Position numbers and translations under genes: made by a program. This document shows, in pieces, positions 2,493-31,151 of a stretch of 64,000 nt of DNA. The first letter of the stretch is position 1. Every line of letters starts with the position of its first letter. This DNA is from Gemmatimonadota bacterium. GTDB taxonomy: Bacteria; Gemmatimonadota; Gemmatimonadetes; Gemmatimonadales; GWC2-71-9. A model generated the notes under the pieces. It did no database searches. It saw only the letters and a list, made by a program, of their open reading frames with translations, and was not told where the DNA came from. Location: NCBI GenBank assembly GCA_003222135.1, contig QHUM01000038.1:34038-98037 (forward strand). The letters are read 5' to 3'.

Positions 2493-2551
2493 CCTGCATT
2501 GCACTCTCCGCCAGGACGGATAGGTTAGCGGTCGCTCCGAACCGGGTCCCC

Positions 2552-6894: not shown

Positions 6895-7689
6895 TCAGGC
6901 GGCGGCCGGAGTCCCGGGATGCGCGGAGCCGCTCGTGGTCTCGATCCGGTTCGATCCGCGCCGCTTCGCGTCGTACAGCGCGGCGTCCGCCAGCGCGTAC
7001 AGTTGATCCTGACTGGTAGCGTCGAAGGGCGCCGTGGCGATCCCCCCGCTCACGGTCACCTCGAGGAACCGCCCGCACACCGGCTGGGTCTCGAACCACG
7101 ACTCGACGTCGGCGCGGAACCGTTCCGCCACGGTGCGCGCCTCCGCCTGCTGGGTGTCCGACAGGATGATCGCGAATTCGTCGCCGCCCAGCCGGCACGG
7201 CACGTCCGCACCGCGCAGGTGCTTGCGGATCAGCTCGCCGAACGCCAGCAGCACCTTGTCCCCAACCCGGTGTCCGTACTCGTCATTGATCTCCTTGAAC
7301 TCATCCAGATCGAGCAGCAGCAACGACACCGGGTTGCCGTAGCGCTGGCAGCGCTGCAGCTCCCGCCTCAGCTCGTGCTCGAAATAGCCGCGATCGTACA
7401 GACCGGTCAGGGCGTCGGAGATGGCACGGCGCTCGATCGCGTCGAGGGCCGCGGTTTCGATGATGGTCGCGTCGACGTGCTGCGGCTGAATGTTGATGAG
7501 GTAATCGAGCAACGCGACACGCCGCCCCACGTCGCGGCCCAGCCGTCGCAGCAGCTCGCGGCGGTGGCGTGATACCTCGCGCCACAGCCGCTCCGCCTCG
7601 GCCTCGGGGACCTGGAGGTGCGCGATCTGTTGCAGCCGCGCGGCGTAGGAGTTGGCAGGCGCCATCCCTTGGCGACTGGGCGTAGCCAT
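6895..7689 (-). CDS. GGDEF-domain diguanylate cyclase
   Basis: DALTGLYDRGYF, LLLLDLDEFKEINDEYGH.VGD and RLGGDEFAIIL (GGDEF active site). Short coiled N-terminus. ATG 7689 chosen; ATG 7782 possible. Confidence 0.8.
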   Translation of the reverse strand: MATPSRQGMAPANSYAARLQQIAHLQVPEAEAERLWREVSRHRRELLRRLGRDVGRRVALLDYLINIQPQHVDATIIETAALDAIERRAISDALTGLYDRGYFEHELRRELQRCQRYGNPVSLLLLDLDEFKEINDEYGHRVGDKVLLAFGELIRKHLRGADVPCRLGGDEFAIILSDTQQAEARTVAERFRADVESWFETQPVCGRFLEVTVSGGIATAPFDATSQDQLYALADAALYDAKRRGSNRIETTSGSAHPGTPAAA

Positions 7690-7909
7690 GCTGACGGTCC
7701 CCCCTCTGGGAGCCCCCACGGTTGGGGGCTCGGGCGCCTGGATTTGCACAGAGCGTACCCGCGACGCCTGCTGTTCTAACATATTTCGTGGGAAGCGGTT
7801 AGGTGATAGAATTAGGGCGCTCCAAAGTGACTGGCGGGCCCCATTCGTGTGCGAATCGGGACGCGACGCCCCGAAATGGGGCGTGTCCCACCTGACACCG
7901 GAGGAATTC

Positions 7910-9727
7910 ATGCTTCGTGTCGTCGTCCTGATCGCCGGCCTGCTCCCGGCCGCTCTCCCCCTGCCCGTCGGCGCACAACAGGCCGCCGACACGGCGTACG
8001 CCAAGAGCGAGGCCAACATCCCTATGCGCGATGGCGTCAAGCTGCGGGTCGTCATCCTCGCGCCGCACGCCGCCAGGCCGCTCCCGATTCTGTTGCAGCG
8101 CACGCCCTACAACGCCAACGGCGCGATCGGCTTCGCGCGCCGTGCCAAGGAGCTCGGCCTGGACGGTTACATCATCGTCTTCGGCGACATCCGCGGTCGC
8201 TTCCGCTCGGAGGGCCGGTTCGACATGAATCGGCCGCCGCGCGCGGGCACGCCGGGGATCGACGAGAGCACCGACGCGTACGATACGATCGACTGGCTCG
8301 TGAAGAACGTGCCGAACAACAATGGTAAGGTCGGCACGTTCGGCGTCTCGTACCCTGGGTGGCTCACGGCGGTCACGGGCATAGGCCCGCACCCCGCCCT
8401 CAAGGCGATCTCACCCCAGGCGCCGATGGGCGACACCTGGATGGGCGACGACTTCTTTCACCAGGGGGCGTTCCGGCTGAGCTACGGCACCGAGTACACC
8501 TGGAGCATGGAATCGTCATCCGACGAAAGCGAAGAGCCGTCCCCATCCCGCTACGACCTGTACGAGTGGTATCGGTCGTTTCCGACCCTGGACGCGCTCG
8601 CCCGGACCGTCCGCGCCGACCGGTGGCCGAGCTGGCACCGGTTCTCGGAGCACCCGGCGTACGACTCGGTGTGGCAGGCCCGCGCGCTGCCGCGCTACAT
8701 GGGCCATGCGACCGTGCCGACGCTCGTGGTGGGCGGGTGGTGGGACCAGGAGGATGAGTACGGTCCGCTCGCCCATTACGCCGCGCTCGAGCGCAGCGAC
8801 ACCGCGCGGCTCGCGCATCTGGTGATGGGTCCGTGGTATCACGGGCAATGGTCCGGCGATTCCGGCACGGCGCTGGGCAATGTCCGCTTCGGCCGTGCGA
8901 CCGGTGTCGAGTACCGGGAGCTCCAGTCCCGCTGGTTCGGCTACTGGCTCAAGGGCGAAGGAGACGGGCGGTTCCCCGCAGCGTGGTTATTCGACGCCGG
9001 CACCGACAGCTGGCGCACGTTCGACACGTGGCCCCCGGCGAACGCCGTACGCCGCCGGCTGTACTTGCGCGCCGACGGCGCGCTGTCATTCGACCCGCCG
9101 ACCGCGGCGGACGCGAGCGACCAGTTCACCTCCGATCCGGCGCATCCCGTGCCCTACCGCCCGCGACCGGTCGAGCTCACCTATTCGCGCACTTCACGCT
9201 GGCGGCGCTGGGAAACGGAGGATCAGCGCTTCGTGGACGGGCGGCCGGACGTGCTCACCTGGCAGACACCGCCGCTCACCGAAGACGTGACCGTCGCAGG
9301 CGATGTCGTCGCGCACCTCTACGCCTCGACCACAGGCAGTGATGCCGACTGGGTGGCGAAGCTCATCGACGTCTATCCCGATACCGTGCCGGGCCGACCG
9401 GAGATGCAGGGCTACGAACTGATGGTGACGGGAGACATCATGCGCGGCCGGTACCGCAAGAGTTGGGAGCGGCCGGAGGGGATCCCGGCGAACGCGATCC
9501 AGCCGTTCACGGTGGACCTGCACCAGCAGGCGTACACGTTCCTGAAGGGCCACCGCATCATGGTGCAGGTGCAGAGCACCTGGTTCCCGCTGTACGACCG
9601 TAATCCGCAGAGCTTCGTGCCCAACATCTTTCGGGCGCGCGCGGAGGACTACAAGGCCCGCGTGCATCGGGTGTACCGCACGACCCAGTATCCGTCGAAC
9701 GTCGAGATCGAGGCGCTTCCCCGCTAA
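7910..9727 (+). CDS. CocE/NonD family hydrolase (S15 X-Pro dipeptidyl-peptidase-like), secreted
   Basis: GGAGGA RBS before ATG 7910. Signal peptide MLRVVVLIAGLLPAALPLPVGAQQ. Nucleophile block GTFGVSYPGW. C-terminal jelly-roll block (RIMVQVQSTWFPLYDRNPQ). Confidence 0.8.
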   Translation: MLRVVVLIAGLLPAALPLPVGAQQAADTAYAKSEANIPMRDGVKLRVVILAPHAARPLPILLQRTPYNANGAIGFARRAKELGLDGYIIVFGDIRGRFRSEGRFDMNRPPRAGTPGIDESTDAYDTIDWLVKNVPNNNGKVGTFGVSYPGWLTAVTGIGPHPALKAISPQAPMGDTWMGDDFFHQGAFRLSYGTEYTWSMESSSDESEEPSPSRYDLYEWYRSFPTLDALARTVRADRWPSWHRFSEHPAYDSVWQARALPRYMGHATVPTLVVGGWWDQEDEYGPLAHYAALERSDTARLAHLVMGPWYHGQWSGDSGTALGNVRFGRATGVEYRELQSRWFGYWLKGEGDGRFPAAWLFDAGTDSWRTFDTWPPANAVRRRLYLRADGALSFDPPTAADASDQFTSDPAHPVPYRPRPVELTYSRTSRWRRWETEDQRFVDGRPDVLTWQTPPLTEDVTVAGDVVAHLYASTTGSDADWVAKLIDVYPDTVPGRPEMQGYELMVTGDIMRGRYRKSWERPEGIPANAIQPFTVDLHQQAYTFLKGHRIMVQVQSTWFPLYDRNPQSFVPNIFRARAEDYKARVHRVYRTTQYPSNVEIEALPR

Positions 9728-11237: not shown

Positions 11238-11957
11238 ATGATAGCCGATCTGGGTGAGTGGCTGGGCCTCGGGCCCTATTGTTGGGAAGCAACGCCGTTC
11301 TTCTTGGCCGGCGTCACCACGTGTCTGGGAGTCATCGGCACAGCATTTTCGGAGCGCGTGATTTCACAGCGGTGGATTCGTTACCGCATCGACCTGGCCG
11401 ACGACCTGCCCGACTCGCCCGATGTCCACCTCACGCCCGTGACCGACGACATCATTCGCGCGCTGCGCGGGCACCCCGATCACGCCGAGCACCAGCTAAG
11501 GTCGGGGTTCAGGTTCTGGGATCGCGGCCTCAGACGAGCGTACGTCTGGATGGACCGGGAGCAGCCGCTGTGCATTCAGTGGCTGCTGACCGGCGCGGAC
11601 CGGGCACGGGTTCGCACCCTGGACGAGTGGGCGGGGATGTATCCCCCACTGGTCTCCCACGTCGGCCAGGTCGAGAACCTGTTCGCGTTCTCGACTGCGC
11701 GGAGGCGAGGGGTCGCCACCCAATTCGAGTACGCGCTGTATGACGAGGCGCGGCGGGCGGGCCTGCGAGAGCTCGTCACCCATATTCACGAGGCCAACGC
11801 CGCGGCGCGGGGCTGGGCGGAGCGGACGGGGTGGCACCCGTTCGGCACCATCACTCGCTTCCAGCTGGACGTCCGGGGACTGCGGGCCTACGCCGTCTAC
11901 CTGCACTCGAGCGACGATCGCGGAGGGCTCAGGCTCCACCACACACGCCCGGTCTGA
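11238..11957 (+). CDS. GNAT-family N-acetyltransferase-like protein (paralog A of 60520..61179)
   Basis: RBS AAAGGGGGGA before ATG 11238. Block ENLFAFSTARRRGVATQFEYALYDEARRAGL resembles the GNAT acetyl-CoA motif A (R/Q-x-x-G-x-A/G). By-eye identity to the 60520..61179 product is roughly 55 percent. The upstream part of ORF 10944.. is rejected as an extension. Confidence 0.65.
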   Translation: MIADLGEWLGLGPYCWEATPFFLAGVTTCLGVIGTAFSERVISQRWIRYRIDLADDLPDSPDVHLTPVTDDIIRALRGHPDHAEHQLRSGFRFWDRGLRRAYVWMDREQPLCIQWLLTGADRARVRTLDEWAGMYPPLVSHVGQVENLFAFSTARRRGVATQFEYALYDEARRAGLRELVTHIHEANAAARGWAERTGWHPFGTITRFQLDVRGLRAYAVYLHSSDDRGGLRLHHTRPV

Positions 11958-12027
11958 CCAACCCGGCCGAGGGTTCCGCGGCGTACCTGGGGCGGTATGT
12001 TCGACCCGTCCACCCCCGGGAGCGCCC

Positions 12028-13137
12028 ATGGCCACGTGGCACCGACTCGGTACGCGCGAAGAGCTGCTCGCGCGCGTCCCCTACTCCCTCAAGCTCGAGC
12101 GGCATCAGATCGCGGTGTTCCTCCACGAAGACCGCTTCTCTGTCATCTCCAACATCTGCAATCACCGGGGCGGACCGCTATGCGAGGGCCGGGTGCGCGG
12201 GGAATTCGTGATGTGTCCCTGGCACGGGTGGGAGTACAGCGTCGTCACCGGGAAAGGGCCCGCGGGTTACGATGAAGAGCAGGTGCCGTCGTTCGCGGTC
12301 GAGGAGCGCGCGGACGGAGTGTACGTCCAGACCCCGCCCGTGATGCCGCGCAGGCTGGTCCAGCACAAGCCGTCCCACCTCCTCGACGCGCACGCCAAGC
12401 CCGTCGGGGCGCCGCCCCGGGTGCTCGGCATCTCCACGACCGGAATGGACCAGGGCAACCCGCGCTTCTCCACATCGGATGCGCTGCTCGATCACGCCAT
12501 GGACATGGCGCGCGAGCTCGTAGCCGACACCCAGCTGATCAGGCTGCGTGACCTCAAGTTCCAGCACTGCGAGGGGAACTACTCCAAGGCCTCGCACGCG
12601 TGCACCTGGCCCTGCGCCATCACCGAGCGCGATCCCGAGGATCAGCTGACAGCCGTGTACGAGGGCCTGGTGCACTGGGCAGACGTGGTCGTCATCGCCA
12701 CGCCGATCCGTTGGGGCAACGCCTCGTCGCTCTACTACAAGATGGCCGAGCGGCTGAACTGCGTGCAGAACCAGATCACCATCCACAACAACATGCTCAT
12801 CAAGAACAAGGTGGCCGCCCTCATCATCACCGGCGGGCAGGACAACATTCAGGCCGTGGCCGGCAACATGCTCACGTTCTGGTCCGAGCTGGGCTTCGTG
12901 TTTCCACAGTTCCCGTTCATCGCGCACTCGCGCGGCTGGGACGCCGAAGACATGCAGAACAACGTGCGCCAGGTGCAGGCGAGCGACGCGTTGCGCGAGG
13001 CGGCGCGCGAGCTGCTGGGCCGCGCCGTGGACTTCTGGAAGGTCCTGGATCAGAATCGCGCCATGATGGACAAGCCGATGGAGCGCGCCGGGCGCAAAGC
13101 GAATCCTCTGGTGAATCCGGAGGAAGCGATCGTATGA
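12028..13137 (+). CDS. Rieske [2Fe-2S] domain fused to flavodoxin-like NAD(P)H-dependent FMN reductase / iron-sulfur flavoprotein domain
   Basis: Rieske ligand motifs CNHRGGPL and CPWHGWEY in the first 110 aa. The C-terminal 250 aa shows flavodoxin-like reductase blocks (VLGISTTG, ADVVVIATPIRWGNASSLYYKM, AALIITGGQDN). Confidence 0.75.
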   Translation: MATWHRLGTREELLARVPYSLKLERHQIAVFLHEDRFSVISNICNHRGGPLCEGRVRGEFVMCPWHGWEYSVVTGKGPAGYDEEQVPSFAVEERADGVYVQTPPVMPRRLVQHKPSHLLDAHAKPVGAPPRVLGISTTGMDQGNPRFSTSDALLDHAMDMARELVADTQLIRLRDLKFQHCEGNYSKASHACTWPCAITERDPEDQLTAVYEGLVHWADVVVIATPIRWGNASSLYYKMAERLNCVQNQITIHNNMLIKNKVAALIITGGQDNIQAVAGNMLTFWSELGFVFPQFPFIAHSRGWDAEDMQNNVRQVQASDALREAARELLGRAVDFWKVLDQNRAMMDKPMERAGRKANPLVNPEEAIV

Positions 13138-13571
13138 GCCGCCGCCTGGAGATCGCGCAGGCGTACGAGAAGGCCCTGTTTGCCGGCGATCGCGCCGCCG
13201 TCGGCAAACTGTTTCACAACGACATCGCATACTGGGTGGCCGGAGCGCCGCCGCTCGGCGGCGAATGGAAGGGTCGGGAGCTGGTGCTCGACGCCCTGTG
13301 GAACCGCGAGCCGGGTCTGGGCGCCGCCGACTGGGGCTCCCAGGACGTGTGGCGCGACTGGTATGACGCGGACGACCGTGTGATCGTAGAGATCCGCGAG
13401 CGTTCCTGGCTCAAGAGCGCCCCGCAGGACATCATGGATCAGCGCACCTGCTGCGTGATCCGGTTCCGCGGGGACCGGATCAGTGAGATACGGGACTACA
13501 CTGACAGTCACATCTACGAGGAGTTTCTGAAGCGGCACCGGGCGGGGCTGCCGAAGTTCGCAACGACGTAA
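13134..13571 (+). CDS. SnoaL-like / NTF2-fold (ketosteroid-isomerase-like) protein
   Basis: ATG 13134 overlaps the upstream stop (ATGA). About 145 aa with an NTF2-like pattern (AQAYEKALFAGDRAAVGKLFHNDIAYWV ... IRFRGDRISEIRDYTD). Confidence 0.65.
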   Translation: MSRRLEIAQAYEKALFAGDRAAVGKLFHNDIAYWVAGAPPLGGEWKGRELVLDALWNREPGLGAADWGSQDVWRDWYDADDRVIVEIRERSWLKSAPQDIMDQRTCCVIRFRGDRISEIRDYTDSHIYEEFLKRHRAGLPKFATT

Positions 13572-13591
13572 GCGCTCCGTGACTGCGTTTT

Positions 13592-13686
13592 CCCATCCTA
13601 AAGGATGGGCTCGGCGCAACACAACCCTAAAGGGTGACGCGTGTGCTTCAGCACAGTGCCGTGCCGAGCCCACGCTTCAGCGTGGG
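13592..13686. terminator. pair of short perfect hairpins in a convergent intergenic region (possible bidirectional terminators)
   Basis: CCCATCC-TAAA-GGATGGG (13592..13609) and CCCACGC-TTCA-GCGTGGG (13669..13686), between the + gene ending at 13571 and the - gene ending at 13707. No clear U-tracts. Confidence 0.35.
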
Positions 13687-13706
13687 AATCGATCGGCAGC
13701 GATGCT

Positions 13707-14930
13707 CTAGAACCGGTCCAGCACCCGGTCCCGGCGGCGCGCCAGCCAGTAGAGCGGCACGCCCAGCAGCAGCGTCGCTCCCGCGGCCACCCACGCATCT
13801 CCAATGCCGCGTGCCCGGGCGAGCCAGCCCCAGCCTGTCTGCCCCGCCACCCCACCCAAATTGGCGAAGAACGAATCGAGCGAGATGATGGTGGCCCGCT
13901 GGGCCGACGGGATGTGCGCATTCAGGTATCCCTGCTTCACCGGCAGCATGACGCCGAGCGCGATTCCGTACACCAGATACAGGGCCACCACAACGTAAAA
14001 GTTGCGTAGCAACCCGCACAGCACGATGGCGATCGCCTGTACGACGACGGATGCAATCAGCAGCGCGGTGCGCGTCCGCAGCACGCGCGCGAGGGGTGTC
14101 ACGAGGACATTGCCGGCGATCAGTGTCAGCGAGGTGAGGGCGGCGATCGCGCCCGCCACCCACACCGCTTCGTGGCCGAGCAGATCCAGGAAATACCGCT
14201 GCCAGCTGTAGAACCCGAAGATCATGAAGCTCACCGACACGAGCGAGCCCAGCATCACCGGCCGCACTACGGGATGGTGTAAGCCGTTGCGCATCCCTTC
14301 GACGAACACGCGGCGCATCTCGGCGGGCACGCGGTCCAGGGAGAGCGCGCGCCGGGTGAACCCGGGCTCCGGCATCGCGCGCCAGGCGAGCACGAACAAC
14401 GGTACGACGATGGCGGCGCGGACCAGATACGGCAGGGCCAGATCGACCTGGCCCAGCAGACCCCCGCCGAGCGTGCCGGCCAGCATCGCCGCCCCGAACG
14501 CCATCTGACCGCGTGCGAAGACCGGCTCGAGCGGCTCGGTGTAGCCCGTCGCCTTGAGCGCGTCCACCAGCCAGGCGTCGACCGCCCCCGTGTAGAACGT
14601 GTAGCCGAGCCCGAGCAGCACCGACACCCACGCGAACGGCCAGAACCCCCAGCCGAACCGTGCGATCGCCACGTACAGGAGCGTGGTGCCGAACAGGGTG
14701 GCGAGGCACAAGAGCAGTGACACGCGCCGGCCGAGCGTGTCCGCCACCACGCCGGTGGGGACCTCGAACAGCACGTTCCCCAGCGTGAACGCCGCGTTCG
14801 TCATCATCACCTGGAAGATGTCGAGGCCGGCGTGGAGCTTGAACAGCGTGTCGATACCCCAGATGAGGGACATCGCCAGGTTGAACAGCCCCGTGATGAG
14901 GAGATACGTGCGAATGATACGCGCGCTCAC
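13707..14930 (-). CDS. MFS transporter
   Basis: 12-TM-like profile and the MFS loop motif VADTLGRRVSLLL. GTG 14930 overlaps the upstream gene stop (GTGA); the track start at 14951 is also possible. Confidence 0.8.
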   Translation of the reverse strand: MSARIIRTYLLITGLFNLAMSLIWGIDTLFKLHAGLDIFQVMMTNAAFTLGNVLFEVPTGVVADTLGRRVSLLLCLATLFGTTLLYVAIARFGWGFWPFAWVSVLLGLGYTFYTGAVDAWLVDALKATGYTEPLEPVFARGQMAFGAAMLAGTLGGGLLGQVDLALPYLVRAAIVVPLFVLAWRAMPEPGFTRRALSLDRVPAEMRRVFVEGMRNGLHHPVVRPVMLGSLVSVSFMIFGFYSWQRYFLDLLGHEAVWVAGAIAALTSLTLIAGNVLVTPLARVLRTRTALLIASVVVQAIAIVLCGLLRNFYVVVALYLVYGIALGVMLPVKQGYLNAHIPSAQRATIISLDSFFANLGGVAGQTGWGWLARARGIGDAWVAAGATLLLGVPLYWLARRRDRVLDRF

Positions 14931-15802
14931 GGCACATGTGCCTCGAGCCACTCGTGCGCGATCGTCCGGATGTCGCGGTGCTCCACGTCCGCGGCCGCGT
15001 TGAGACGGCGCATCTCGTCGTCGGAAATCTTGCCTCCCAGCTCCTCCAGGGCGCGCGCGAGCCCCGCATAGCGCTCCAGCGTCCCGGCCCGCACCACCGG
15101 CGCCGCTTCGTAGGGCGGGAAGTAGTGCCTGTCGTCCTCGAGCACGGCCAGGTGCAGCGCCGCGATCTGTCCGTCGGTGGAGTTTCCGGCGATCACGTCC
15201 ACCTTGCGGTCGGCCAGGGCGCGGTAGGTGAGGCCCAGGTCCATCGCCGTCGGCGGCGCGGCGAAGTGGAGTCCGTAGACCCGGGACAGCCCCGCGAAGC
15301 CGTCGGCGCGCTCGAGGAACTCGTAGCCGAAGCCCGCGTGCCAGCGTGGCGCCACCCGGCTCAGGTCCGACATGACCTTCAGCCCGTAGCGCTCAGCGTC
15401 GGCGGCGCGCACCAGGATCGCGAATGTGTTGTCGAACCCGAACGCCGTGAGCCAGCGCAGCCCGAACTGCCGGCTGTACTCGCTCGCGACCTGGCGGAAC
15501 ACACTGTCGCGCTCGACGACGGGCGGGTGCTTGAGCACGGCCGTGAACGCGGTGCCCGAGTACTCGACGTACAGATCGATCTGCCCCGCCAGGATCGCTT
15601 GGTGACACACGAACGTCCCACCCAAGTGCAGCCGGCGCTCCACCGGGACGTGCAGCCGGCGCTCGATCTGTTGCGCCACGATTTCGGCCAGGAGATCGGA
15701 TTCGGTGAAGTTTTTCGCGCCGACGATGATCCGGTCGTGCCGCCCACAGGCGCCGAGCAACAACGCCAGGGTGAGGAGCACCCGACCGCCTATCGCTGCC
15801 AT
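14927..15802 (-). CDS. glycine betaine/choline-type ABC transporter substrate-binding lipoprotein (OpuAC/OsmF-like)
   Basis: Lipobox LLLGAC. Resembles the OpuAC family (KNFTESDLLAEI, DLYVEYSGTA, NTFAILV, MDLGLTYRALADRKVDVIAGNSTDGQI). Confidence 0.8.
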   Translation of the reverse strand: MAAIGGRVLLTLALLLGACGRHDRIIVGAKNFTESDLLAEIVAQQIERRLHVPVERRLHLGGTFVCHQAILAGQIDLYVEYSGTAFTAVLKHPPVVERDSVFRQVASEYSRQFGLRWLTAFGFDNTFAILVRAADAERYGLKVMSDLSRVAPRWHAGFGYEFLERADGFAGLSRVYGLHFAAPPTAMDLGLTYRALADRKVDVIAGNSTDGQIAALHLAVLEDDRHYFPPYEAAPVVRAGTLERYAGLARALEELGGKISDDEMRRLNAAADVEHRDIRTIAHEWLEAHVP

Positions 15803-16416
15803 GCCAGCCTCCGCTGGGCGATCCCCAGCACCGCGTCCGCCGCCAGGGCGAGCAGCGCGGCGGGCAACGCCCCCGCCATGATCAGCGTATCATCCACAGT
15901 CGCCACCCCGCGAAAGATGTAGACACCGAGCCCGCCTGCCCCGATCGCCGCGCCGATCGTCGCCACGCCTACGCTCACCACCGTCGCGACGCGGATGCCG
16001 GCGAGGATCACGCCGGCGGCGAGCGGCAGCTCGACCAGCCGCAACAGCTCGCCGTCTGTCATGCCCATCCCCCGGCCCGCCTCGCGCACCGCCGGGTCCA
16101 CGCCCGCGATCCCCGTATACGTGTTGCGGATGATCGGCAGCAGCGCGTACAGAATCAGCGCCGTGATCGCCGTCCACGCTCCGATGCCGAAGAACGGGAT
16201 CAGAAATCCGAGGAGCGCGAGACTGGGAATCGTCTGGAACACGTTGGCGAGGCCGAGCACCGGCGCCCGCCATGCCGGGCGGCGCGTGAGCGCGATGCCG
16301 AGCGGGACGCCGACGACGATCGCCGCGCCGGTCGAGACCACGACCAGGTAGACGTGCTGCCAGGTCAGTGCCAGCAGCTCGACCGAGTTGCGGGAGTAGA
16401 AGGACAGGAGGCTCAT
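15790..16416 (-). CDS. ABC transporter permease (osmoprotectant/betaine type)
   Basis: BPD_transp_1-type permease with EAA-like loop (REAGRGMGMTDGELLRLVELPLA). Overlaps the SBP gene by 13 nt. Confidence 0.8.
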   Translation of the reverse strand: MSLLSFYSRNSVELLALTWQHVYLVVVSTGAAIVVGVPLGIALTRRPAWRAPVLGLANVFQTIPSLALLGFLIPFFGIGAWTAITALILYALLPIIRNTYTGIAGVDPAVREAGRGMGMTDGELLRLVELPLAAGVILAGIRVATVVSVGVATIGAAIGAGGLGVYIFRGVATVDDTLIMAGALPAALLALAADAVLGIAQRRLAWQR

Positions 16417-16442
16417 CGTTTTTCGGCTAACCCCGGGCCGCC

Positions 16443-17222
16443 CTAAAAGGACTTCCTCGGGCCCTGCGGGCCCTCAGTCGCCGGCCCGGGGTCAACCGCA
16501 CTCATGAACGCCACGGCCTCCGGCTGGGTCGACCCCCGAAACTCTTCCGGCGTCCCCAGGAACAGGAGGCGCCCCTCGTGCATCAGCCCGATCCGGGTAC
16601 CGAGCAGCAAACCCTCGCGCACGTCGTGCGTCACGAACACCATGCCCTTGCCCAGCCTGCCCTCGAGGCCGCGAAACTCGCGCTGCAGCTCGACGCGCGT
16701 GATGGGGTCGAGCGCGCCGAACGGCTCATCGAGCAACAGCAGCGGCGGATCGGCGGCGAGCGCACGGGCCACGCCGACGCGCTGGCGTTGCCCTCCCGAC
16801 AACTGATGCGGGTAGCGGCTCAGGAATGCGGCGGGGTCGAGGCCCACGAGGGCGAGGAGCTCCCGCACCCGGGCGGCGATCCGGTCGGCCGGCCACCGCT
16901 CCAGCCGCGGCACGAGCCCGATGTTCTGCGCCACGGTGAAGTGGGGAAACAGCCCGACCTCCTGGATCACGTAGCCGATGCGCCGCCGCAGGCGCGTCGG
17001 CTCGAGGGCGGCCGTGGGCTCACCCGCCACCAGCACTTCCCCGGCGGTCGGCTCGAGCAAGCGGTTGATGAGCTTCAGGGTGGTCGTCTTGCCGGACCCG
17101 CTGCGCCCCAGCAAAACGAGGGTCTCGCCAGGACCCACGGTAAAGGATACGTTCTGCACCAGAGTGCGGCCGTCGCCGGGCAGCGCGTAGGCCAGCCCCC
17201 GCACATCGACGGCGGCGGTCAC
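16443..17222 (-). CDS. ABC transporter ATP-binding protein (osmoprotectant/betaine type, no CBS domains)
   Basis: Walker A GRSGSGKTT, signature LSGGQRQRVGVARAL, Walker B LLLLDEP, H-loop FVTHD. GTG start overlaps the upstream stop (GTGA at 17219..17222). Confidence 0.85.
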   Translation of the reverse strand: MTAAVDVRGLAYALPGDGRTLVQNVSFTVGPGETLVLLGRSGSGKTTTLKLINRLLEPTAGEVLVAGEPTAALEPTRLRRRIGYVIQEVGLFPHFTVAQNIGLVPRLERWPADRIAARVRELLALVGLDPAAFLSRYPHQLSGGQRQRVGVARALAADPPLLLLDEPFGALDPITRVELQREFRGLEGRLGKGMVFVTHDVREGLLLGTRIGLMHEGRLLFLGTPEEFRGSTQPEAVAFMSAVDPGPATEGPQGPRKSF

Positions 17223-18157
17223 GCGGGGCCCGCGAGGACCATCAAGAAGCGGGCATCGTCGCTCGTGCCGCGCCAGCGTACCGCGAGGCCGGCGTCGGTC
17301 AGAATGCGAACGAACGTGTCGGCGTCGTACTTGTAAGAATGATTCAGGTCGAGACGCTCTCCGGCGGGGAGCGCCATTGTCTCGCCGCCCAGCCCGGCTC
17401 GTACCTCGCGGGTCGCGCGGAAGTGCTTGGCGAGCGGGTGCAGGCCAGGGAGCCGTGCGTCCACCCGGTCTTCGAACACGAGCTCGCCGTCCTGCTCGGT
17501 GATGCCGACAGCCACGAGCGGCGCCCAGGCGAAGCGGCGGTTGAGCGGATTGTCGTACCCGGCCACGGTGTGCTGGGCAGCGTAAATCTCGCCGTCCACG
17601 ATGAGCAAGTCGTGCGGCCGCAGCAGCGCGCGCAGCTGGCGCGCGGCGGCGAGCGGGTCGAAGGCACCAAGCGTGTTGCCGAGCAGGAGGACGAGTCGCG
17701 GCGGCGTTGCGGGGTCCGGGGCGAGGGCCGCCAGGTGGTCAGAGCGCGTGAAATCGGCCTTGATCCCCTGGGCCGGCAGGCCCGCCCCCATCGCTCCCTG
17801 GCACGCTAACTCGAGCAGGGCCAGGCTCGTATCGACCGGAACGTAGGAGACGTGAACTCCGTGGCGGCTCAGCGCGTTAAGCAAAAGTAGGTCTTTGTCC
17901 CCCTGTCCTGAGCCCAGGCTCACGACCTCGAGAGAGCCGGGCTGGACGAAGCCGGCGAGCCGGTCGGCGGATTGAACAATCAGAGAGCGCGAGCGGACGT
18001 AGTTGCGGTAGGCGCCGTCTGAGCAGAGGGCGAGCCAGGCGCGCACGGAGAGTGGGAACCAGTAGAAGAACTTCTCGTCGAAGCGGCGTGCCTGAAAGGC
18101 CGCGACGAATTCGTCGGCGAGAGCGTTCTCGGTCAGCAGGGATTGGATCGCGATCAT
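17219..18157 (-). CDS. EgtD-like SAM-dependent methyltransferase (histidine N-alpha-methyltransferase / Methyltransf_33 family)
   Basis: Collinear with my recollection of mycobacterial EgtD: KFFYW, VSLGSGQGDKDLLLLNAL (EgtD LGSGTSEKTRMLL), YVPVDTS (FIPFDVD), RLVLLLGNTLGAF (VVFLGSTIGN), GYDNPLNRRF, C-terminal YKYDADTFVRILTDAGL. Substrate not predictable. Confidence 0.6.
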   Translation of the reverse strand: MIAIQSLLTENALADEFVAAFQARRFDEKFFYWFPLSVRAWLALCSDGAYRNYVRSRSLIVQSADRLAGFVQPGSLEVVSLGSGQGDKDLLLLNALSRHGVHVSYVPVDTSLALLELACQGAMGAGLPAQGIKADFTRSDHLAALAPDPATPPRLVLLLGNTLGAFDPLAAARQLRALLRPHDLLIVDGEIYAAQHTVAGYDNPLNRRFAWAPLVAVGITEQDGELVFEDRVDARLPGLHPLAKHFRATREVRAGLGGETMALPAGERLDLNHSYKYDADTFVRILTDAGLAVRWRGTSDDARFLMVLAGPA

Positions 18158-18173
18158 AGCTCAGAGTTATCGG

Positions 18174-18203
18174 TTGACGGGTGTGACGGCAACCCGTTAT
18201 GGT
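18174..18203 (+). promoter_or_regulatory. candidate sigma70-type promoter for the peptide/MNIO operon (TTGACG-N18-TATGGT)
   Basis: TTGACG at 18174..18179 and TATGGT at 18198..18203, in the 92-nt divergent intergenic region. A small inverted repeat, ACGGGT (18177..18182) / ACCCGT (18192..18197), overlaps the spacer. Pattern match only. Confidence 0.3.
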
Positions 18204-18249
18204 AGTCGAACCTGCCGTCGTTCTCTTTTCCCAAGCAGGGAGGAAACCA

Positions 18250-18342
18250 ATGCAGATCGTCGAAACCGCAGAACTGGTGCCCAGCTGTCATCGTCCCGAG
18301 ATCGTCGAGACGAGCGAGCTGGAGCCCACCTGCCACTCCTAA
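18250..18342 (+). CDS. 30-aa tandem-repeat Cys-His peptide, candidate RiPP precursor (MQIVETAELVPSCHRPEIVETSELEPTCHS)
   Basis: Hand-translated; below the ORF-track length cutoff. SD GGGAGGA at 18238..18244 lies 5 nt before ATG 18250. TAA stop at 18340..18342. GC3 is 24/30. There are two 14-15-aa repeats, each ending P-[ST]-C-H. Directly upstream of the AKR, DUF692 and partner genes. Confidence 0.55.
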   Translation: MQIVETAELVPSCHRPEIVETSELEPTCHS

Positions 18343-18356
18343 GGGAGATCGGCTGG

Positions 18357-19475
18357 ATGTGCGAAGGGGCCCGGACCGATGTCGGGCCCCTTTCGCGTTT
18401 CCTGGGCGTCGCAGCGCGCCTGGGGTTCGGGGGGTGGGCGGTGGGCGGGACCGGCTGGGGGGCGGCGGGAGAGGACAGCGAGCGCGCCGCCGCGATCCGG
18501 CACGCGGTCGAGCGCGGGGTCACCTTCTTCGATACGGCACCCACGTACGGCGGAGGCGAGTCCGAGCGGCTGTTGGGTCGCGTGCTCAAGGCCGATCGGG
18601 AGCGCGTCGCGATCGCCACGAAGGTCGGCCCGCGCGACGATCCGCGCGCCTCGCTCGAAGACTCGCTGCGCCGCCTGAACACCGACTACGTCGACCTCGT
18701 CCAGCTGCACGAGACTCTGGACCGCTGGGAGTGGCAGCTCGAAAAGCTCCATGCCCTGCAGCTCGCCGGGAAAGCACTCGCCGTGGGGCTGTGCAACGCC
18801 ACGCACCGGCAGCTCGAGCGGGCGCTTACCCTCGCGCCGCTCGCGACCTATCAGGCCCCGTACAACCTGTTCGACCGGGACGTCGAGGAGCGAACGCTAC
18901 CGCTGTGCCGCGATCGCCGCCTCGCCTTCCTTGCCTACCGACCACTCGCGGCCGGTCTGCTCGGGGGCAAGTACGCGGCGCCGCCGCAGTTCGCCGAGGG
19001 CGACCACCGCCGCCAGATCTACTGGTTCAAGGGGAAGGAGTTCGAGCGGCGCCGCGCCGTGATCGACCGGCTGCGACCCATTGCGCAGGGTCAAGAGATA
19101 TCGCTCATCGCGCTGGCGCTGGGTTGGCTGCGCTCGCAGCCGGGCGTGAGCATCGTCCTGGTCGGAGCCAGGAACGGCGCGCAGGTGGACGAGACCTTCG
19201 TCCCCGACCCCCGACCCCTGACCCCCGAGGTGTGCCGTGCGATCGACGCCATCGTCGCCGACGTCTTCCGCCCCGCACGCTCCACGCCGCAGCTCGGCGA
19301 CGCCGCCCGGACGTGGGGCGAGCGGGAGCGGTTCATCGCTGCGCGGCTCGACGGGACCACGCGCTACGAGGCAATCGCGGCCGAGTGGACGGACACGGGC
19401 GACAAGCCGATGATCGCGGCCCAGGTGAAGGTGTTCGTGGACCAGCTCGTCGAACAGGGACTTGCTGAGGTCTGA
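18357..19475 (+). CDS. aldo/keto reductase with about 65-aa C-terminal PqqD/RRE-like extension
   Basis: GGGAG RBS before ATG 18357. AKR blocks (GVTFFDTAPTYGGGESERLLG, RERVAIATKVG, YVDLVQLHE, LAYRPLAAGLL, SIVLVGARN). The tail (ERFIAARLDGTTRYEAIAAEW...AAQVKVFVDQLVEQGL) resembles the helical half of PqqD-like peptide-binding domains. The upstream part of ORF 18174.. is rejected. Confidence 0.8.
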   Translation: MCEGARTDVGPLSRFLGVAARLGFGGWAVGGTGWGAAGEDSERAAAIRHAVERGVTFFDTAPTYGGGESERLLGRVLKADRERVAIATKVGPRDDPRASLEDSLRRLNTDYVDLVQLHETLDRWEWQLEKLHALQLAGKALAVGLCNATHRQLERALTLAPLATYQAPYNLFDRDVEERTLPLCRDRRLAFLAYRPLAAGLLGGKYAAPPQFAEGDHRRQIYWFKGKEFERRRAVIDRLRPIAQGQEISLIALALGWLRSQPGVSIVLVGARNGAQVDETFVPDPRPLTPEVCRAIDAIVADVFRPARSTPQLGDAARTWGERERFIAARLDGTTRYEAIAAEWTDTGDKPMIAAQVKVFVDQLVEQGLAEV

Positions 19476-19481
19476 GGTCTG

Positions 19482-20270
19482 ATGTCTGGCATCTCGGTTG
19501 GCACCTTTTACAATCCGCACCTCGGAGCGGAGCTCGCGCAGGCCGACGGCATCGACCATCTCGCAATGGCGGACCCGCCGGCGCCGCACGACCCCCACTG
19601 GCCCGCGATCAAGCAGCGCTATACCCTGCTGCTGCACGACTACCTGGGCCAGCTGTCGGAGCCGCTCGACGAGCGCTCCATCGCCCGCGCCCGTTCGCTC
19701 GCCGAGCTGTACCGCACGCCGTGGGTGGCCGAGCATTTCCAGTGCCTCCACACCGAGGACGGCCGCTACAATCTCAATTACGTCTTCCCGCCGCTCTACA
19801 CCGAGGAATTCCTGCAGCGCTTCGTCACCAATGCCAAAGCGCTGCAGGTGCGGCTCGACCAGCCGCTCGTGATGGAGAACATCCCCGGATTCTTCGACGT
19901 CAAGGCGAGCCAGCTGCCCGAGCCGGTGTGGCTGCGGCGCTTCTTCGAGGCGACCGGAGCCGGCTTTCTGCTCGACCTGCCGCACGTCTGGCTCGAGGCG
20001 CACTACCGCGCGGTGAAGCCCGCGGTGTGGCTGGCGGAGTTCCCCCTGGAGCGCGTCGTCGAGCTGCACGTGGCGGGCGTGGTTCAAGACGACGACCTGC
20101 AGGGGCCGTGGATCGCGCCCGCCGCCCCCTCGGACGAGATGCTCGACTTCCTGGCGCTCGCGGTGAGCCGTTGCCCGCGCGCGCAGGCGGTGACGTTCGA
20201 CGCGTTCTCGCCGTCACTCACGCTCGAGGTGCTGCTCTCGAGCGTCGAGCGGATCCGCGCGGCCTTGTGA
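19482..20270 (+). CDS. DUF692 family protein (MbnB/TglH/BufB-like multinuclear non-heme iron oxidase, MNIO)
   Basis: GAGG RBS 5 nt before ATG 19482. Family blocks are collinear with DUF692 proteins as I remember them: WVAEHFQC (FFSEHLSY), VFPPLYTEE (LLPMPFTEE), LVMENIPGFF (ISLENTSYY), FLLDLPHVWLEA (IHLDVNNIYVNA), VVELHVAG (YIHIAGH). Confidence 0.75.
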   Translation: MSGISVGTFYNPHLGAELAQADGIDHLAMADPPAPHDPHWPAIKQRYTLLLHDYLGQLSEPLDERSIARARSLAELYRTPWVAEHFQCLHTEDGRYNLNYVFPPLYTEEFLQRFVTNAKALQVRLDQPLVMENIPGFFDVKASQLPEPVWLRRFFEATGAGFLLDLPHVWLEAHYRAVKPAVWLAEFPLERVVELHVAGVVQDDDLQGPWIAPAAPSDEMLDFLALAVSRCPRAQAVTFDAFSPSLTLEVLLSSVERIRAAL

Positions 20271-21043
20271 GCGACCGCGAGATACAGGATTCCGTCATCC
20301 GGGCGCTCGCGGACGCGCCCTATCGCGCGTCCCCCGCGTGGCGCGGTCTGGCACTCGCCGATCCGACGCGCCTCGAGCGGTTCGCGCGGTTCCTCGCGCG
20401 CCACTTCTATCACGAGCGGCTCGTCCACTTTTTCAAGTACTCGCGTGCCCTGGCGAGGGTCACGGGCCGGCACCCCGAGGCGGTGCTCCAGGGCGGCGGC
20501 TTCGATGCGCTGCTCCCCAAGGCGGTGCTGGGCAGCCGCGACACGGCGCGCGGCGTGGCGGCGCTCGCCGTGCACCACGTCCACAGCGCGAGCGCCTCGC
20601 GTGCGATCCCCTATCTCAGCGACCTGCTCGAGTACGAGCAGGCCATGATGATCGTGGAGGCAGGCCCCCGAGTGTGGCGGGACGACGGCGCAGAACAAGG
20701 AGCCGGGAGCGGGGAGCGGTCCCTTCCGGAGACCGTTCAAGGAACGGTGCTCTTGGATCTCGCCTACGACCTGCCCGCCGTGCTTCCCAAGCTGCTGCAG
20801 CCGTGGACCGAGGTGCCCCCAGCGTCGCCGCGGCGTGTAAAGCTGCTCGTGGCGCGCTCTGCGCATGGCCGCGTCACGGTGGCCCGCGCCGATGCGGCGG
20901 TCGCGAGCGTGGTGGAACTCGCCGACGGGCGGAAGACGCTGCCCGAGCTGGCGCGTGAGGCCGGCTTGCGGACGGCCGACCTGGAGGCGACACTGGCCGG
21001 GCTCGCCGACCTGGGCGCCGTACGGTTCGGGACCGGAAGCTGA
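20267..21043 (+). CDS. MNIO partner protein candidate (DUF2063-like N-domain, PqqD/RRE-like winged-helix C-terminus)
   Basis: GTG 20267 overlaps the DUF692 stop (GTGA). Block IPYLSDLLEYEQAMM resembles the DUF2063 motif PYLADVARLEWA. The C-terminus VVELADGRKTLPELAREAGLRTADLEATLAGLADLG is PqqD-like. Confidence 0.5.
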   Translation: MSDREIQDSVIRALADAPYRASPAWRGLALADPTRLERFARFLARHFYHERLVHFFKYSRALARVTGRHPEAVLQGGGFDALLPKAVLGSRDTARGVAALAVHHVHSASASRAIPYLSDLLEYEQAMMIVEAGPRVWRDDGAEQGAGSGERSLPETVQGTVLLDLAYDLPAVLPKLLQPWTEVPPASPRRVKLLVARSAHGRVTVARADAAVASVVELADGRKTLPELAREAGLRTADLEATLAGLADLGAVRFGTGS

Positions 21044-21057
21044 CGGGAGGTCATCAC

Positions 21058-23265
21058 ATGGCTCGCGCGCTTTCTCGCAGGACGTTCCTCCAGGCCGGTG
21101 CCGCCGTCGGAGGTGGCTTGCTGCTGGGCTTCACGCTACCCGCCCGCGGGCGCGGGCGGGGGCGCGCCGACCGATTTGCCCCCAATGCCTTCATCCGGAT
21201 CGATCGCGACGGCCGGGTGACGTTGATCATGCACAAGGTCGAGATGGGCCAGGGGACGTACACGTCCATGCCGATGCTGCTCGCCGAGGAGCTCGAGGTG
21301 GACTTGGCCCAGGTGCGGCTCGAGCACGCGCCGCCCGACGACGCGCTGTACGCCGAACCGCTGTTCGGTGTCCAGGAAACCGGCGGCTCGACGTCGGTGC
21401 GCGGCAACTTCGAGCCGCTGCGCCGCGCCGGCGCCGCCGCGCGTACGTTGCTGGTGGCCGCCGCGGCGCAAACGTGGCAGGTCGCGGCGACGTCGTGCCG
21501 CGCGGAGCGGGGCGAGGTGATCCATGGGCCCACGGGACGCCGGCTCGGCTACGGCGCGCTCGTGGACAAAGCGGCGACCTTGCCGGTGCCGCCCACCCCG
21601 CCGCTCAAGGACCCCAAGGACTGGACGCTCATCGGCACGCCCGCCAAACGCCTCGACAGCCCCGACAAGGTCAACGGCACCGCGCTGTTCGGGATCGACG
21701 TGCGGCTCCCCGGCATGAAGGTGGCGACGCTGGCAGCGTGTCCCGTGTTCGGTGGCAAGCTGGCGAGCGTCGACGACGCGAAGGCCCGGGCGGTCCCCGG
21801 CGTGCAGCAGGTGGTGCGGCTCGACGACGCCGTGGCCGTGGTCGCCGACCACATGTGGGCGGCGAAGCAGGGCCTCGCGGCGCTCGCCATCCGGTGGGAC
21901 GAGGGCCCGAACGCCCGGCTCGACACCGCCGATATCGTGCAGCAGCTCGCGGCGGCGTCACAGCGGTCGGGAGTGGTCGCGCGCAACGCGGGCGACGCCG
22001 CCCGAGCCATGGCGGGGGCCGCCCGGAAGGTGGAAGCGATCTACGAGCAGCCGTTCCTGGCGCACGCCACGATGGAGCCGGTCAACTGCACGGTCCACGT
22101 CCGGCCGGACGGCTGCGACATCTGGGTGGGGACCCAGGTGCCGACGTTCACGCGCACCGCCGCCGCGCAGCTGACGGGTCTGCCACGCGACCGCGTCCAG
22201 GTGCACAACCATCTCCTGGGCGGCGGATTCGGCCGGCGGCTCGAGGTGGACTTCGTCCGCCGGGCGGTGCGAATCGCGATGCAGGTCACGGGCCCGGTGA
22301 AAGTGGTGTGGACCCGCGAGGAAGACATCCAGCAGGACATGTACCGGCCGTACTACTACGACCGCATCGCCGCCGGCCTGGACGAGCGCGGCCGGCCGGT
22401 CGCCTGGACCCATCGCGTCACCGGCTCGTCGATCATGGCGCGGGTGACGCGCGAACTGTTCCCCAAGACGCTACGCGTCATGCGGGCGGCCGGGCTGCAC
22501 CAGCTCGTCGCGATGGTCAAGGGTCTCGACGTGGACGCGGTGGAAGGCGCGGCGGAGCCGCCGTATACCCTGCCCAACATCCGCGTCGAATACGTGCGTC
22601 AGGAGCCGCCCGGGATCGCGACCGCGTTCTGGCGCGGCGTGGGGCCGACGCACAACATCTTCGTGGTCGAGAGCTTCATCGACGAGCTCGCCGCAGCGAC
22701 GCGACAGGACCCGTTCCAGTACCGCCGCGCGCTGCTCGACCAGGCGCCGCGCGCGAAGGCGGTGCTCGAGCTCGCCGCGCTCCAGGCCGGCTGGGGGCGC
22801 CCGCTCGCGCCGGGAAGCGGGCGCGGGATCTCGCTGCTACACGCCTTTGGGAGCTACCTCGCTCAGGTCGCCGAGGTGTCGGTTTCCAAGCAAGGGGAGG
22901 TCCGGGTCGCGCGGGTCGTCTGCGCGGTGGATTGCGGCATCGTCGTCAACCCCGACACCGTCAAGGCGCAGATCGAGAGCGGGGTCATCTTCGGGATCTC
23001 GGCCGTCTTGTGGGGCGAGATCACCTTCAAGGATGGCCGCGTCGAGCAGCACAATTTCAACGATTACCGGGTGCTGCGCATCAACCAGGCCCCGGTGATC
23101 GAAGTCCATCTCGTGAAGAGCACGGAGGCGCCGGGGGGAATCGGCGAGCCGGGAACGTCGGCCGTGATGCCGGCGGTCGCCAACGCCATCTTCGCGGCGA
23201 CCGGCAAGCGAATCCGCAAACTGCCGGTGAAGGACCAGTTGCGAGAGCCGGCGCCGACTCCCTAG
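21058..23265 (+). CDS. molybdopterin-binding oxidoreductase large subunit (xanthine dehydrogenase family, IorB / membrane-bound aldehyde dehydrogenase-like) with Tat signal
   Basis: GGGAGG RBS. Twin-arginine signal [20 protein letters not shown]. IorB-type blocks ([76 protein letters not shown]). Confidence 0.85.
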
Positions 23266-31016: not shown

Positions 31017-31151
31017 GGGCGGCGCTCCCGAATAGTGAGGGTTGGCCTCCCTCTACGGAAGCCGGGCCCCACAAGTTCCGGACACGCTCGGCCGCAACCT
31101 TCCACGGCCGCTACGCGTCAAACTACACAGCCTCCCACACACGGGTGCCCT

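Follow-up and report, generated by a model that had tools for sequence, protein, structure and literature searches.

Several described systems bear on the locus reported here. As a source of new peptide chemistry, multinuclear non-heme iron oxidases (MNIOs, formerly DUF692) are growing fast. With a peptide as scaffold, TglHI makes a small molecule, and in its pathway, that of 3-thiaglutamate, a Cys is added to the C-terminus of the peptide by a tRNA-dependent enzyme; other described MNIO systems are ApyHI (aminopyruvatide) and the bufferin-type enzymes BufB and HvfB. EgtD of Mycobacterium smegmatis and M. tuberculosis (PDB 4pio, 4uy6 and 7scf) is the histidine methyltransferase of ergothioneine synthesis, and OpuBC, OpuCC, AfProX and EgtUC (subcluster F-III) are binding proteins of quaternary-amine importers (PMC9732360). 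Here we describe a gene cluster in a 64-kb stretch of a Gemmatimonadota contig (QHUM01000038.1; the whole stretch is called the window below), in which an MNIO peptide operon lies divergent to an operon for an EgtD-like methyltransferase (MT), a betaine-type ATP-binding cassette (ABC) importer and a major facilitator superfamily (MFS) pump. Three features are unusual: a precursor of tandem Cys-His repeats, a methyltransferase with the EgtD fold and an importer of the betaine class. The cluster points to an undescribed pathway in which the peptide's Cys-His repeats are probably converted to a small, methylated molecule that is exported and taken up again.

By sequence, all parts of this cluster are from known families (PF10017, an OpuAC-type importer, MFS, MNIO, a TglI/DUF2063-like partner and an aldo-keto reductase, AKR), and none scores high enough, by the curated thresholds, to join a characterised group of orthologues. 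Full-text searches found no literature that pairs MNIO/DUF692 with EgtD, PF10017, ergothioneine or AKR, and none that pairs the MNIO term with Gemmatimonadota; a 2025 survey of MNIO clusters mentions neither methyltransferases, betaine and AKRs nor Gemmatimonadota. We found no description of this cluster type, a kind of MNIO peptide cluster, in the searchable literature.

Two divergent operons and their control region

The genes of the cluster and the control region between the two operons are as follows:

13707..14930, minus strand: MFS transporter, probably an exporter (MFS_1, 72 bits; alternative start GTG 14951)
14927..15802, minus strand: OpuAC-type substrate-binding lipoprotein, 291 amino acids (aa) (PF04069, 198 bits)
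15790..16416, minus strand: ABC importer permease, 208 aa (BPD_transp_1, 72 bits)
16443..17222, minus strand: ABC transporter ATPase, 259 aa, nucleotide-binding domain only (ABC_tran, 129 bits)
17219..18157, minus strand: EgtD-fold S-adenosylmethionine (SAM)-dependent MT, 312 aa, of a distinct PF10017 subfamily (Pfam, TIGR03438, hhalign, AlphaFold2, Foldseek)
18163..18200: core of the divergent control region, with an inverted repeat (alignment of 66 spacers)
18250..18342, plus strand: precursor peptide, 30 aa (repeat homologues in related loci)
18357..19475, plus strand: AKR (PF00248, 193.6 bits)
19482..20270, plus strand: MNIO (DUF692) oxidase, 262 aa (PF05114, 91.5 bits)
20267..21043, plus strand: MNIO partner, 258 aa, TglI/DUF2063-like (fold match of the AlphaFold2 model)

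The five minus-strand open reading frames (ORFs), in the order MT, ATPase, permease, lipoprotein and MFS pump, form a single operon. They are strongly coding (G+C at third codon positions of 0.84-0.91; the G+C content of the window is ~69%). The MT stop and the GTG start of the ATPase gene overlap in GTGA (17219-17222), a 26-nt gap (16417-16442) separates the ATPase and permease genes, the permease and binding-protein genes overlap by 13 nt (15790-15802), and the binding-protein and MFS genes share GTGA at 14927-14930 provided that GTG 14930 is the start of the MFS gene (the longest MFS ORF, from GTG 14951, gives a 25-nt overlap instead). With that proviso, ORFs and Pfam matches agree with the coordinates, order and junctions given in a preliminary description of this DNA. 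No promoter-like site was found within the operon by a consensus scan, and the one terminator-like hairpin inside it is at chance level (2 found versus 2.5 expected).

The two operons are separated by 92 nt (18158-18249), as the same description had stated. The 38-nt core of this spacer (18163-18200; on the plus strand AGAGTTATCGGTTGACGGGTGTGACGGCAACCCGTTAT) is at least 90% conserved across 66 distinct intergenic regions and holds an inverted repeat, ACGGGT-N9-ACCCGT (18177-18182 and 18192-18197), overlapped by back-to-back -35-like boxes. A sigma-70-like site, TTGACG-18-TATGGT (18174-18203, plus strand), faces the peptide operon and is the only such site that the consensus scan found in 13400-18400, where 0.2 are expected by chance. 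The scan found no minus-strand promoter for the MT operon; TTGCCG-17-TAACTC, 6 nt before the MT ATG, may be a weak candidate. In the window and its relatives a conserved TAAnTC element stops 6-9 nt short of the MT start codon, and a Shine-Dalgarno-like sequence is absent at the MT gene (18155-18169, minus strand); together these suggest a leaderless or near-leaderless MT transcript. Because the divergent -35 boxes overlap round one conserved palindrome, joint regulation of both operons is plausible.

Conservation of the cluster across genomes

We scanned one genome per GTDB species, found at least 228 MT relatives and examined the best 80 loci by tblastn with the window proteins; counts of gene presence are limited to loci with enough flank. 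The gene arrangement is far beyond chance, as it recurs in ~80 species-level genomes with differing outer flanks, and the same divergent operon pair stands in three independent contexts whose outer flanks are different. Close MT relatives (71-93% identity) are abundant in Gemmatimonadota metagenomes, and the cluster is widespread in uncultured soil Gemmatimonadota. In the loci of this phylum the MNIO gene is found in 63 out of 63, the partner gene in 48 out of 48, the AKR gene in 60 out of 63, all three ABC genes in 61 out of 62 and the MFS gene in 48 out of 49. Two Gemmatimonadota loci (L025 and L034) have the ABC genes beyond the peptide operon and the MFS gene directly after the MT gene, with cluster membership kept.

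Other lineages hold different subsets of the cluster. Three loci in Actinomycetota (MT 55-60% identical) have the peptide, AKR (3/3), MNIO, partner and MT genes only, with no transporter, among housekeeping genes (guaA and those for IMP dehydrogenase, succinate dehydrogenase and isocitrate dehydrogenase). Three loci in Nitrospirota have the MT, ATPase, permease, binding protein, peptide, MNIO and partner genes and lack AKR and MFS genes. An unassigned metagenome lineage (MT 52% identical) has a four-repeat precursor, AKR, MNIO, partner and MT, followed by a cutinase-like hydrolase. The MT is thus the hub of the cluster and is linked to an MNIO in at least three phyla; its linkage with the ABC importer is likewise seen in three phyla (Gemmatimonadota, Nitrospirota and, in locus L083, Armatimonadota).

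The MT/transporter operon and the divergent peptide operon are supported as a single biosynthetic gene cluster. A functional link between the two, which the preliminary description had offered as speculation, gains its support from this synteny across phyla, and the co-occurrence of EgtD-like and DUF692 genes that it had proposed is borne out: the MT subfamily has MNIO genes and precursors with Cys-His repeats as its neighbours in Gemmatimonadota, Actinomycetota, Nitrospirota and the unassigned lineage. The same data bear on another explanation, in which the MT, ABC and MFS genes would be an ordinary osmoprotectant/betaine operon that lies beside the peptide operon merely by shared Gemmatimonadales ancestry. 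Most loci do come from one order; however, the MT travels with the peptide, MNIO and partner in Actinomycetota, where there is no transporter, and in Nitrospirota, where there is one, the ABC genes relocate within the cluster without leaving it, and the flanks differ between loci. We return to this explanation with the transporter proteins.

MT relatives of 50% identity or less lie in other contexts: two adjoin genes for DAO-family oxidases, one shares a single protein with an ATP-grasp ligase and one adjoins an M29-like gene. Distant relatives, located by exact sequence, are mostly on short contigs. The fusion (P0144; positions 190-2412 of L096, with L099 listed alongside) is a 740-aa protein of an ATP-grasp ligase and an MT part of this subfamily (44% identity), and a DAO-family oxidase gene comes after it; P0126, a further MT relative, likewise has a DAO-family neighbour. 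No MNIO gene was found in the contexts of the fusion and of P0126.

Accessory genes vary among the loci. In relatives an EamA-type exporter gene lies beside the MFS gene, and it is absent from the window (relatives with accessory genes are L001, L002, L005, L071, L020 and L023). A 400-aa LssY_C protein is encoded between MNIO and partner in 18 relative loci. Between the AKR and MNIO genes, relatives have one for a MetX-like alpha/beta hydrolase (PRK06489), and downstream they have DinB_2/MST, DUF4760, ArsC-family and beta-lactamase-family genes; the window has none of these. Converging on the MFS gene in the window are a Rieske-plus-FMN-reductase fusion gene (11740-13137, plus strand) and a SnoaL_2 gene (13134-13571, plus strand), of which the Rieske gene recurs in 37 related loci. 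The ergothioneine-importer operon of Streptococcus pneumoniae also has a SnoaL2-family gene (PMC9732360); its presence in both contexts may be a coincidence.

The methyltransferase and the importer

The preliminary description likened the first gene of the minus-strand operon to EgtD, and this likeness holds for the full-length fold. The MT matches PF10017 (Methyltransf_33, EgtD/EasF superfamily) with 81.9 bits (gathering threshold 23), but it scores 63.9 bits against the egtD equivalog TIGR03438, short of the cut-off of 290.9, and is ~20% identical to EgtD. Alignment of the MT subfamily with M. smegmatis EgtD (hhalign; the reference sequence is identical to PDB 4uy5) has 98% probability over 278 columns, i.e. 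the full length of both domains, and the GxGxG SAM motif is common to the two. The AlphaFold2 model of the MT has a mean predicted local distance difference test score (pLDDT) of 96.1 and a predicted template-modelling (TM) score (pTM) of 0.93. Its top 15 PDB matches in Foldseek are all EgtD (TM scores of 0.79-0.85), and the next folds are generic methyltransferases (TM scores of at most 0.53). No extra peptide-binding domain was found in the MT. Judged by these comparisons it is an EgtD-fold enzyme but not an EgtD orthologue, and so histidine trimethylation cannot be assumed.

In EgtD the substrate carboxylate is held by Tyr56, Tyr206 and Ser284 and the alpha-amine by Asn166, while the imidazole is contacted by Glu282 and by a water bound to Thr213 (PMC8593015). 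The pocket comparison proposed in the preliminary description is divided on these residues. The carboxylate binders are kept as Y50, Y201 and S274, all three invariant in the subfamily alignment, and Tyr39 and Gly161 are kept as Y32 and G160. In contrast, four pocket residues are changed: Asn166 to Ala165 (small residues throughout the subfamily), Glu282 to Asn272 (Ser, Asn or Gly throughout the subfamily), Ser162 to an invariant Asn161 and Phe47 to Trp41. The loss of Asn166 is specific to this subfamily, as more distant PF10017 proteins keep it. An invariant Lys244 stands opposite Met252 of EgtD in the MAFFT alignment and opposite a gap in hhalign; the pairing is uncertain, with the strand order of the AlphaFold2 model favouring the MAFFT version. 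The substrate may therefore retain a free alpha-carboxylate and carry a side chain other than plain imidazole, with its amine held differently.

No gene like egtB, egtC, egtE or ovoA (FGE-sulfatase and DinB_2 families included) was found within the 64-kb window; the preliminary description had suggested looking for such genes elsewhere in the genome. We rejected the canonical ergothioneine pathway, as the MT is below the EgtD equivalog cut-off and lacks Asn166 and Glu282 and the window has no egtB-like gene; unlike EgtD, the MT sits in a ribosomal-peptide cluster.

The transporter is of the OpuB/OpuC/AfProX/EgtU class of quaternary-amine importers, in agreement with the betaine-type assignment made earlier, with the caveat that one aromatic of the ligand cage is lost. 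An OpuAC-fold binding protein, a BPD_transp_1 permease and a betaine-family ATPase stand together in one operon. The best NCBIfam model of the ATPase is the proV/betaine-family TIGR01186, covered only at profile positions 7-217 of 363, and those of the permease are choline and ProW permeases; with its single gene, the permease is presumably a homodimer. The ATPase (259 aa) has no CBS Pfam match and thus no CBS tail, which is typical of the osmoregulated OpuA/OpuC/ProV (ProU) systems. PDB relatives of the binding protein are OpuBC-derived sensors, OpuCC, EgtUC and AfProX (full-length matches, E-values from 1e-55 to 1e-40). A difference from this group is that the binding protein is a separate lipoprotein that is not fused to the permease; its lipobox Cys19 is invariant in 52 out of 52 orthologues.

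We mapped the pocket of the binding protein by motif and spacing from the description of EgtUC (PMC9732360), not by structure. Twelve of its residues (K30, N31, F32, Y81, T84, F123, N125, F127, E161, R165, N207, which is Asp in Nitrospirae, and Y231) are invariant in 52 orthologues. The carboxylate triad of EgtUC (Lys242, Thr296 and Arg379) corresponds to Lys30, Thr84 and Arg165, Glu375 (contact to the imidazole N-epsilon-2) to Glu161 and the cage base Asn339 to Asn125. The cage of four aromatics round the trimethylammonium is incomplete, with three of the four present: Phe293, Tyr341 and Tyr443 are kept as Tyr81, Phe127 and Tyr231, and Tyr419 is lost in 52 out of 52 orthologues (Asn207, or Asp in Nitrospirae). 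The EgtU-invariant Gly244 is replaced by Phe32, and the Phe293/Tyr337 switch of EgtUC is absent, the residues being Tyr81 and Phe123. The pocket is best described, on this mapping, as one for a carboxylate-bearing betaine with one wall altered, and the protein is not an EgtU orthologue.

These proteins also weigh on the osmoprotectant explanation. In its favour, the family names of ATPase, permease and binding protein are those of betaine/choline uptake; the ATPase, however, is without the CBS tail of the OpuA/OpuC/ProV ATPases, and all orthologues have lost the one cage aromatic. We rejected a plain osmoprotectant operon on the cross-phylum synteny and the missing CBS tail, and regard it as highly improbable.

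The MFS protein has a weak match to MFS_3 and a low-score resemblance to Tet(40)/TetA(P)-type efflux pumps. It is a probable exporter, as is the EamA protein in relatives, with the direction of transport inferred from such likeness. Binding-protein-dependent type I ABC systems import, so the operon would pair export with re-uptake.

The repeat peptide and its possible product

The precursor is a 30-aa peptide, MQIVETAELVPSCHRPEIVETSELEPTCHS, of two tandem units that each end in P(S/T)CH. A homologous small ORF is present in 82 out of 89 loci, and most of the other seven are without upstream flank or have a distantly related MT. All precursors consist of tandem repeats of ~13-16 residues, (I/V)VExxELxP(T/S/G)CH. 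The copies number two in Gemmatimonadota and Nitrospirota, three or four in Actinomycetota and four in the unassigned lineage (L097). As the preliminary description had it, Cys-His is the conserved element of the peptide, invariant in every repeat across loci. In 62 different DNA sequences of this 30-codon ORF, the sites that vary number 14, 10 and 27 at codon positions 1, 2 and 3, and the Pro, Cys and His codons vary synonymously, which argues that the ORF is translated and under purifying selection. Because copy number ranges from two to four while ELxP(T/S)CH is invariant, each repeat seems to have its own recognition element and, as the pattern suggests, its own modified site. No signal peptide was found on the precursors. 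A degenerate DNA pattern of two repeats gave seven chance matches and zero true precursors in metagenome contigs, and a search with a 60-aa precursor matched one protein.

The locus has all the marks of an MNIO-type cluster of a peptide that is made by the ribosome and modified after translation, namely a PF05114 enzyme, an adjoining partner and a small precursor with Cys. The nearest NCBIfam models of the MNIO are ApyH (103 bits, cut-off 400) and BufB (84 bits, cut-off 310), followed by HvfB (50 bits, cut-off 360) and ChrH (16 bits, cut-off 600); in the PDB its nearest relative is TglH (E-value 1e-9), with MbnB at 0.28. It thus falls in none of the named subfamilies (ApyH, BufB, HvfB, ChrH, MbnB and TglH) by equivalog cut-off or close identity. 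Its own relatives that we list are all at least 80% identical. The MNIO stop is overlapped by the GTG start of the next gene, whose product (identical to PYP17902.1) has no Pfam match and a weak match to ApyI (E-value 6e-4). The AlphaFold2 model of this 258-aa protein (pLDDT 89), winged-helix-like at the C-terminus, has as its best PDB folds TglI of the TglHI holoenzyme (8hi7_A, E-value 3.6e-6, TM score 0.57) and the DUF2063 protein NGO1945 (3dee), and we therefore take it to be the MNIO partner.

Compared with the 3-thiaglutamate system, the MNIO is nearest TglH, the partner fold is nearest TglI, the precursor has no signal peptide and the target is likely to be Cys. However, the sequence similarity is weak, the Cys is internal, encoded and placed before His in two to four copies, and homologues of TglB, TglF and TglG were not seen at this cluster. 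ApyHI and BufB/HvfB supply the best models for the MNIO and a weak one for the partner, but the scores are far under the cut-offs (400, 310 and 200 bits), and the precursor type and the AKR, MT and transporter genes differ.

The PDB relatives of the AKR are AKR11-type enzymes, and its Asp-Tyr-Lys-His tetrad is intact by inspection. It ends in a tail of ~55 aa (residues ~318-372, window 19300-19475; WGERERF..RLDG....E.IAA.WTD....PM.AAQVKVF.DQL.E.GL) that is conserved from Gemmatimonadota to Actinomycetota and shows no similarity to the C-terminus of the partner in BLASTP; that the tail might recognise the peptide is a guess. The AKR is dispensable, being absent in Nitrospirota and in three Gemmatimonadota loci. 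Past the partner gene by 15 nt lies a gene for a molybdopterin-binding oxidoreductase large-subunit-like protein (21058-23265, plus strand; MoCoBD_1/2, twin-arginine translocation signal), with no small Fe-S subunit gene seen next to it. It is common only to the two closest relatives (L009 and L011) and so may have joined the peptide operon recently.

The explanation that we favour, and to which we give an even chance, is that the peptide gives rise to a small N-methylated amino acid, which is exported and later taken back up. We infer the following chemical steps, and with them the small size of the product and any betaine formation. The ribosome would make a short peptide of two to four (I/V)VExxELxP(T/S)CH repeats, to each of which the MNIO and its TglI-like partner would bind and oxidatively modify the Cys that precedes His; the AKR, where present, may reduce a carbonyl formed en route. 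Unlinked or accessory hydrolases would then free one small modified amino acid per repeat, which the EgtD-fold MT would N-methylate, possibly to a betaine. The product would be exported by the MFS pump (and by the EamA pump in relatives) and recovered by the lipoprotein-dependent ABC importer, as such or in a metal-bound or oxidised form. The main argument for a small product is made up of the binders for a free amino acid's carboxylate that the MT and an unrelated binding protein both keep, the per-repeat design of the precursor and the TglHI/ApyHI-like enzyme pair; the distant MT relatives that adjoin DAO-family amine oxidases or are fused to an ATP-grasp ligase also support a small molecule.

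An S15-family X-Pro dipeptidyl peptidase gene lies a few kb from the cluster in the window (7652-9727, plus strand) and in L005 (17734-19548) and is not conserved across loci; such a peptidase could trim the repeats, as Pro directly precedes (T/S)CH in every repeat.

A number of points weigh against a small methylated amino acid. The chief one is that no protease was found in the conserved core of the examined loci; the hydrolases near the cluster (MetX-like alpha/beta hydrolase, LssY_C, beta-lactamase-family, cutinase-like, S15 or M28 peptidases) are all variable, and as His is never C-terminal in the precursor, cuts on both of its sides would be needed. As Ala or some other small residue stands in for Asn166, methylation might be at a group other than an alpha-amine, and with one cage aromatic changed to Asn/Asp, the amine of the ligand may be less than fully quaternary; both residue mappings, that of the MT and that of the binding protein, come from alignments and spacing, not from coordinates. 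As Actinomycetota lack the transporter and Nitrospirota the AKR, the universal core is the peptide, MNIO, partner and MT only. Near MT relatives of 52-53% identity (L083, L087 and L088; Armatimonadota, KSB1 and Planctomycetota) no MNIO was found within the available flanks, and the association was measured from MT-centred loci, which do not cover the reverse direction (MNIO and precursor without MT).

The chief rival, possible though doubtful, is a peptide metallophore. The MNIO would turn each Cys into a thiooxazole or an oxazolone/thioamide that binds copper or another metal together with His, as in bufferins and methanobactins, the MT would methylate the peptide (e.g. at its N-terminus), the MFS pump would export it and the ABC system would re-import the metal complex. 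Cys-His pairs are natural metal ligands, metallophore systems pair an exporter with a binding-protein importer, BufB ranks second among the NCBIfam models of the MNIO, the partner also resembles the DUF2063 protein 3dee and the core without a protease would be expected. By gene content only, biosynthesis plus an MFS/EamA-type exporter and a binding-protein importer may be compared with the secrete-and-retrieve metallophores (methanobactin, Mbn; staphylopine/pseudopaline, Cnt); at this cluster, however, there is no adjacent TonB-dependent receptor, no metal-responsive regulator or operator was identified and the inverted repeat of the control region was matched to no known regulator. The binding protein is of the class for small betaine-type ligands, with the carboxylate triad and a compact pocket kept, whereas methanobactin uptake uses a different, peptide-type binding protein. 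The free-carboxylate binders of EgtD are kept in an MT that has no peptide-recognition domain, the precursors are without a signal peptide, unlike those of bufferins, and a varying number of repeats fits a product made per repeat. On the other side, such metal-binding heterocycles are what most characterised Cys-acting MNIOs make (PMC12452194).

A ribosomal thiohistidine betaine is a specific version of the small amino acid product, and one that we think unlikely. Here the MNIO would link the sulfur of Cys to the imidazole of the His beside it, what is left of the Cys would be eliminated, proteolysis would free 2- or 5-thiohistidine and the MT would trimethylate it to ergothioneine or an isomer. 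It would account for the invariance of Cys-His in every repeat, the EgtD fold of the MT and an importer of the same class as the ergothioneine importer EgtUV. The change of Glu282 to Asn/Ser and the invariant Lys opposite Met252 (in MAFFT) would suit a thiolate-bearing side chain, and the AKR could reduce a keto group if the Cys remnant leaves as dehydroalanine. To our knowledge, however, no MNIO forms a C-S bond to imidazole, there is no direct or experimental hint of such a product and Asn166 is lost. The binding protein also lacks the ergothioneine determinants of EgtUC, with Phe at Gly244, Tyr for Phe293 and Asn at Tyr419 (PMC9732360). It would follow from this version, with the same low probability, that bacteria of several phyla use the ribosome to produce a thiohistidine betaine akin to ergothioneine or ovothiol, export it and recapture it by a dedicated betaine-type importer. 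Thiohistidines would then have a third route, templated by a peptide, and MNIOs a new reaction.

Should a small methylated amino acid be the product, betaines would come within the peptide-scaffold logic known from 3-thiaglutamate and pyrroloquinoline quinone (PQQ), the EgtD family would gain a new substrate class and the OpuC/EgtU transporter family a new specificity. A thiol or metal-binding product would be relevant to the handling of redox or of metals in a soil phylum that is abundant and poorly known.

Other features of the window lie apart from the cluster. A second AKR gene (1482-2558, minus strand), positionally unrelated to the cluster, adjoins a gene for a PQQ-dependent dehydrogenase (2552-4801, plus strand). 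Two large paralogous proteins of CBM9 plus DUF5916 are encoded at 31035-33866 (plus strand) and 42346-44904 (minus strand), and between them are genes for a 1324-aa PKD/metallophosphatase protein and an ABC exporter-type pair (38755-42334). At 44995-47913 (plus strand) a 972-aa protein is encoded that is a UvrD-type helicase with an inserted exonuclease domain of the RNase_T family.

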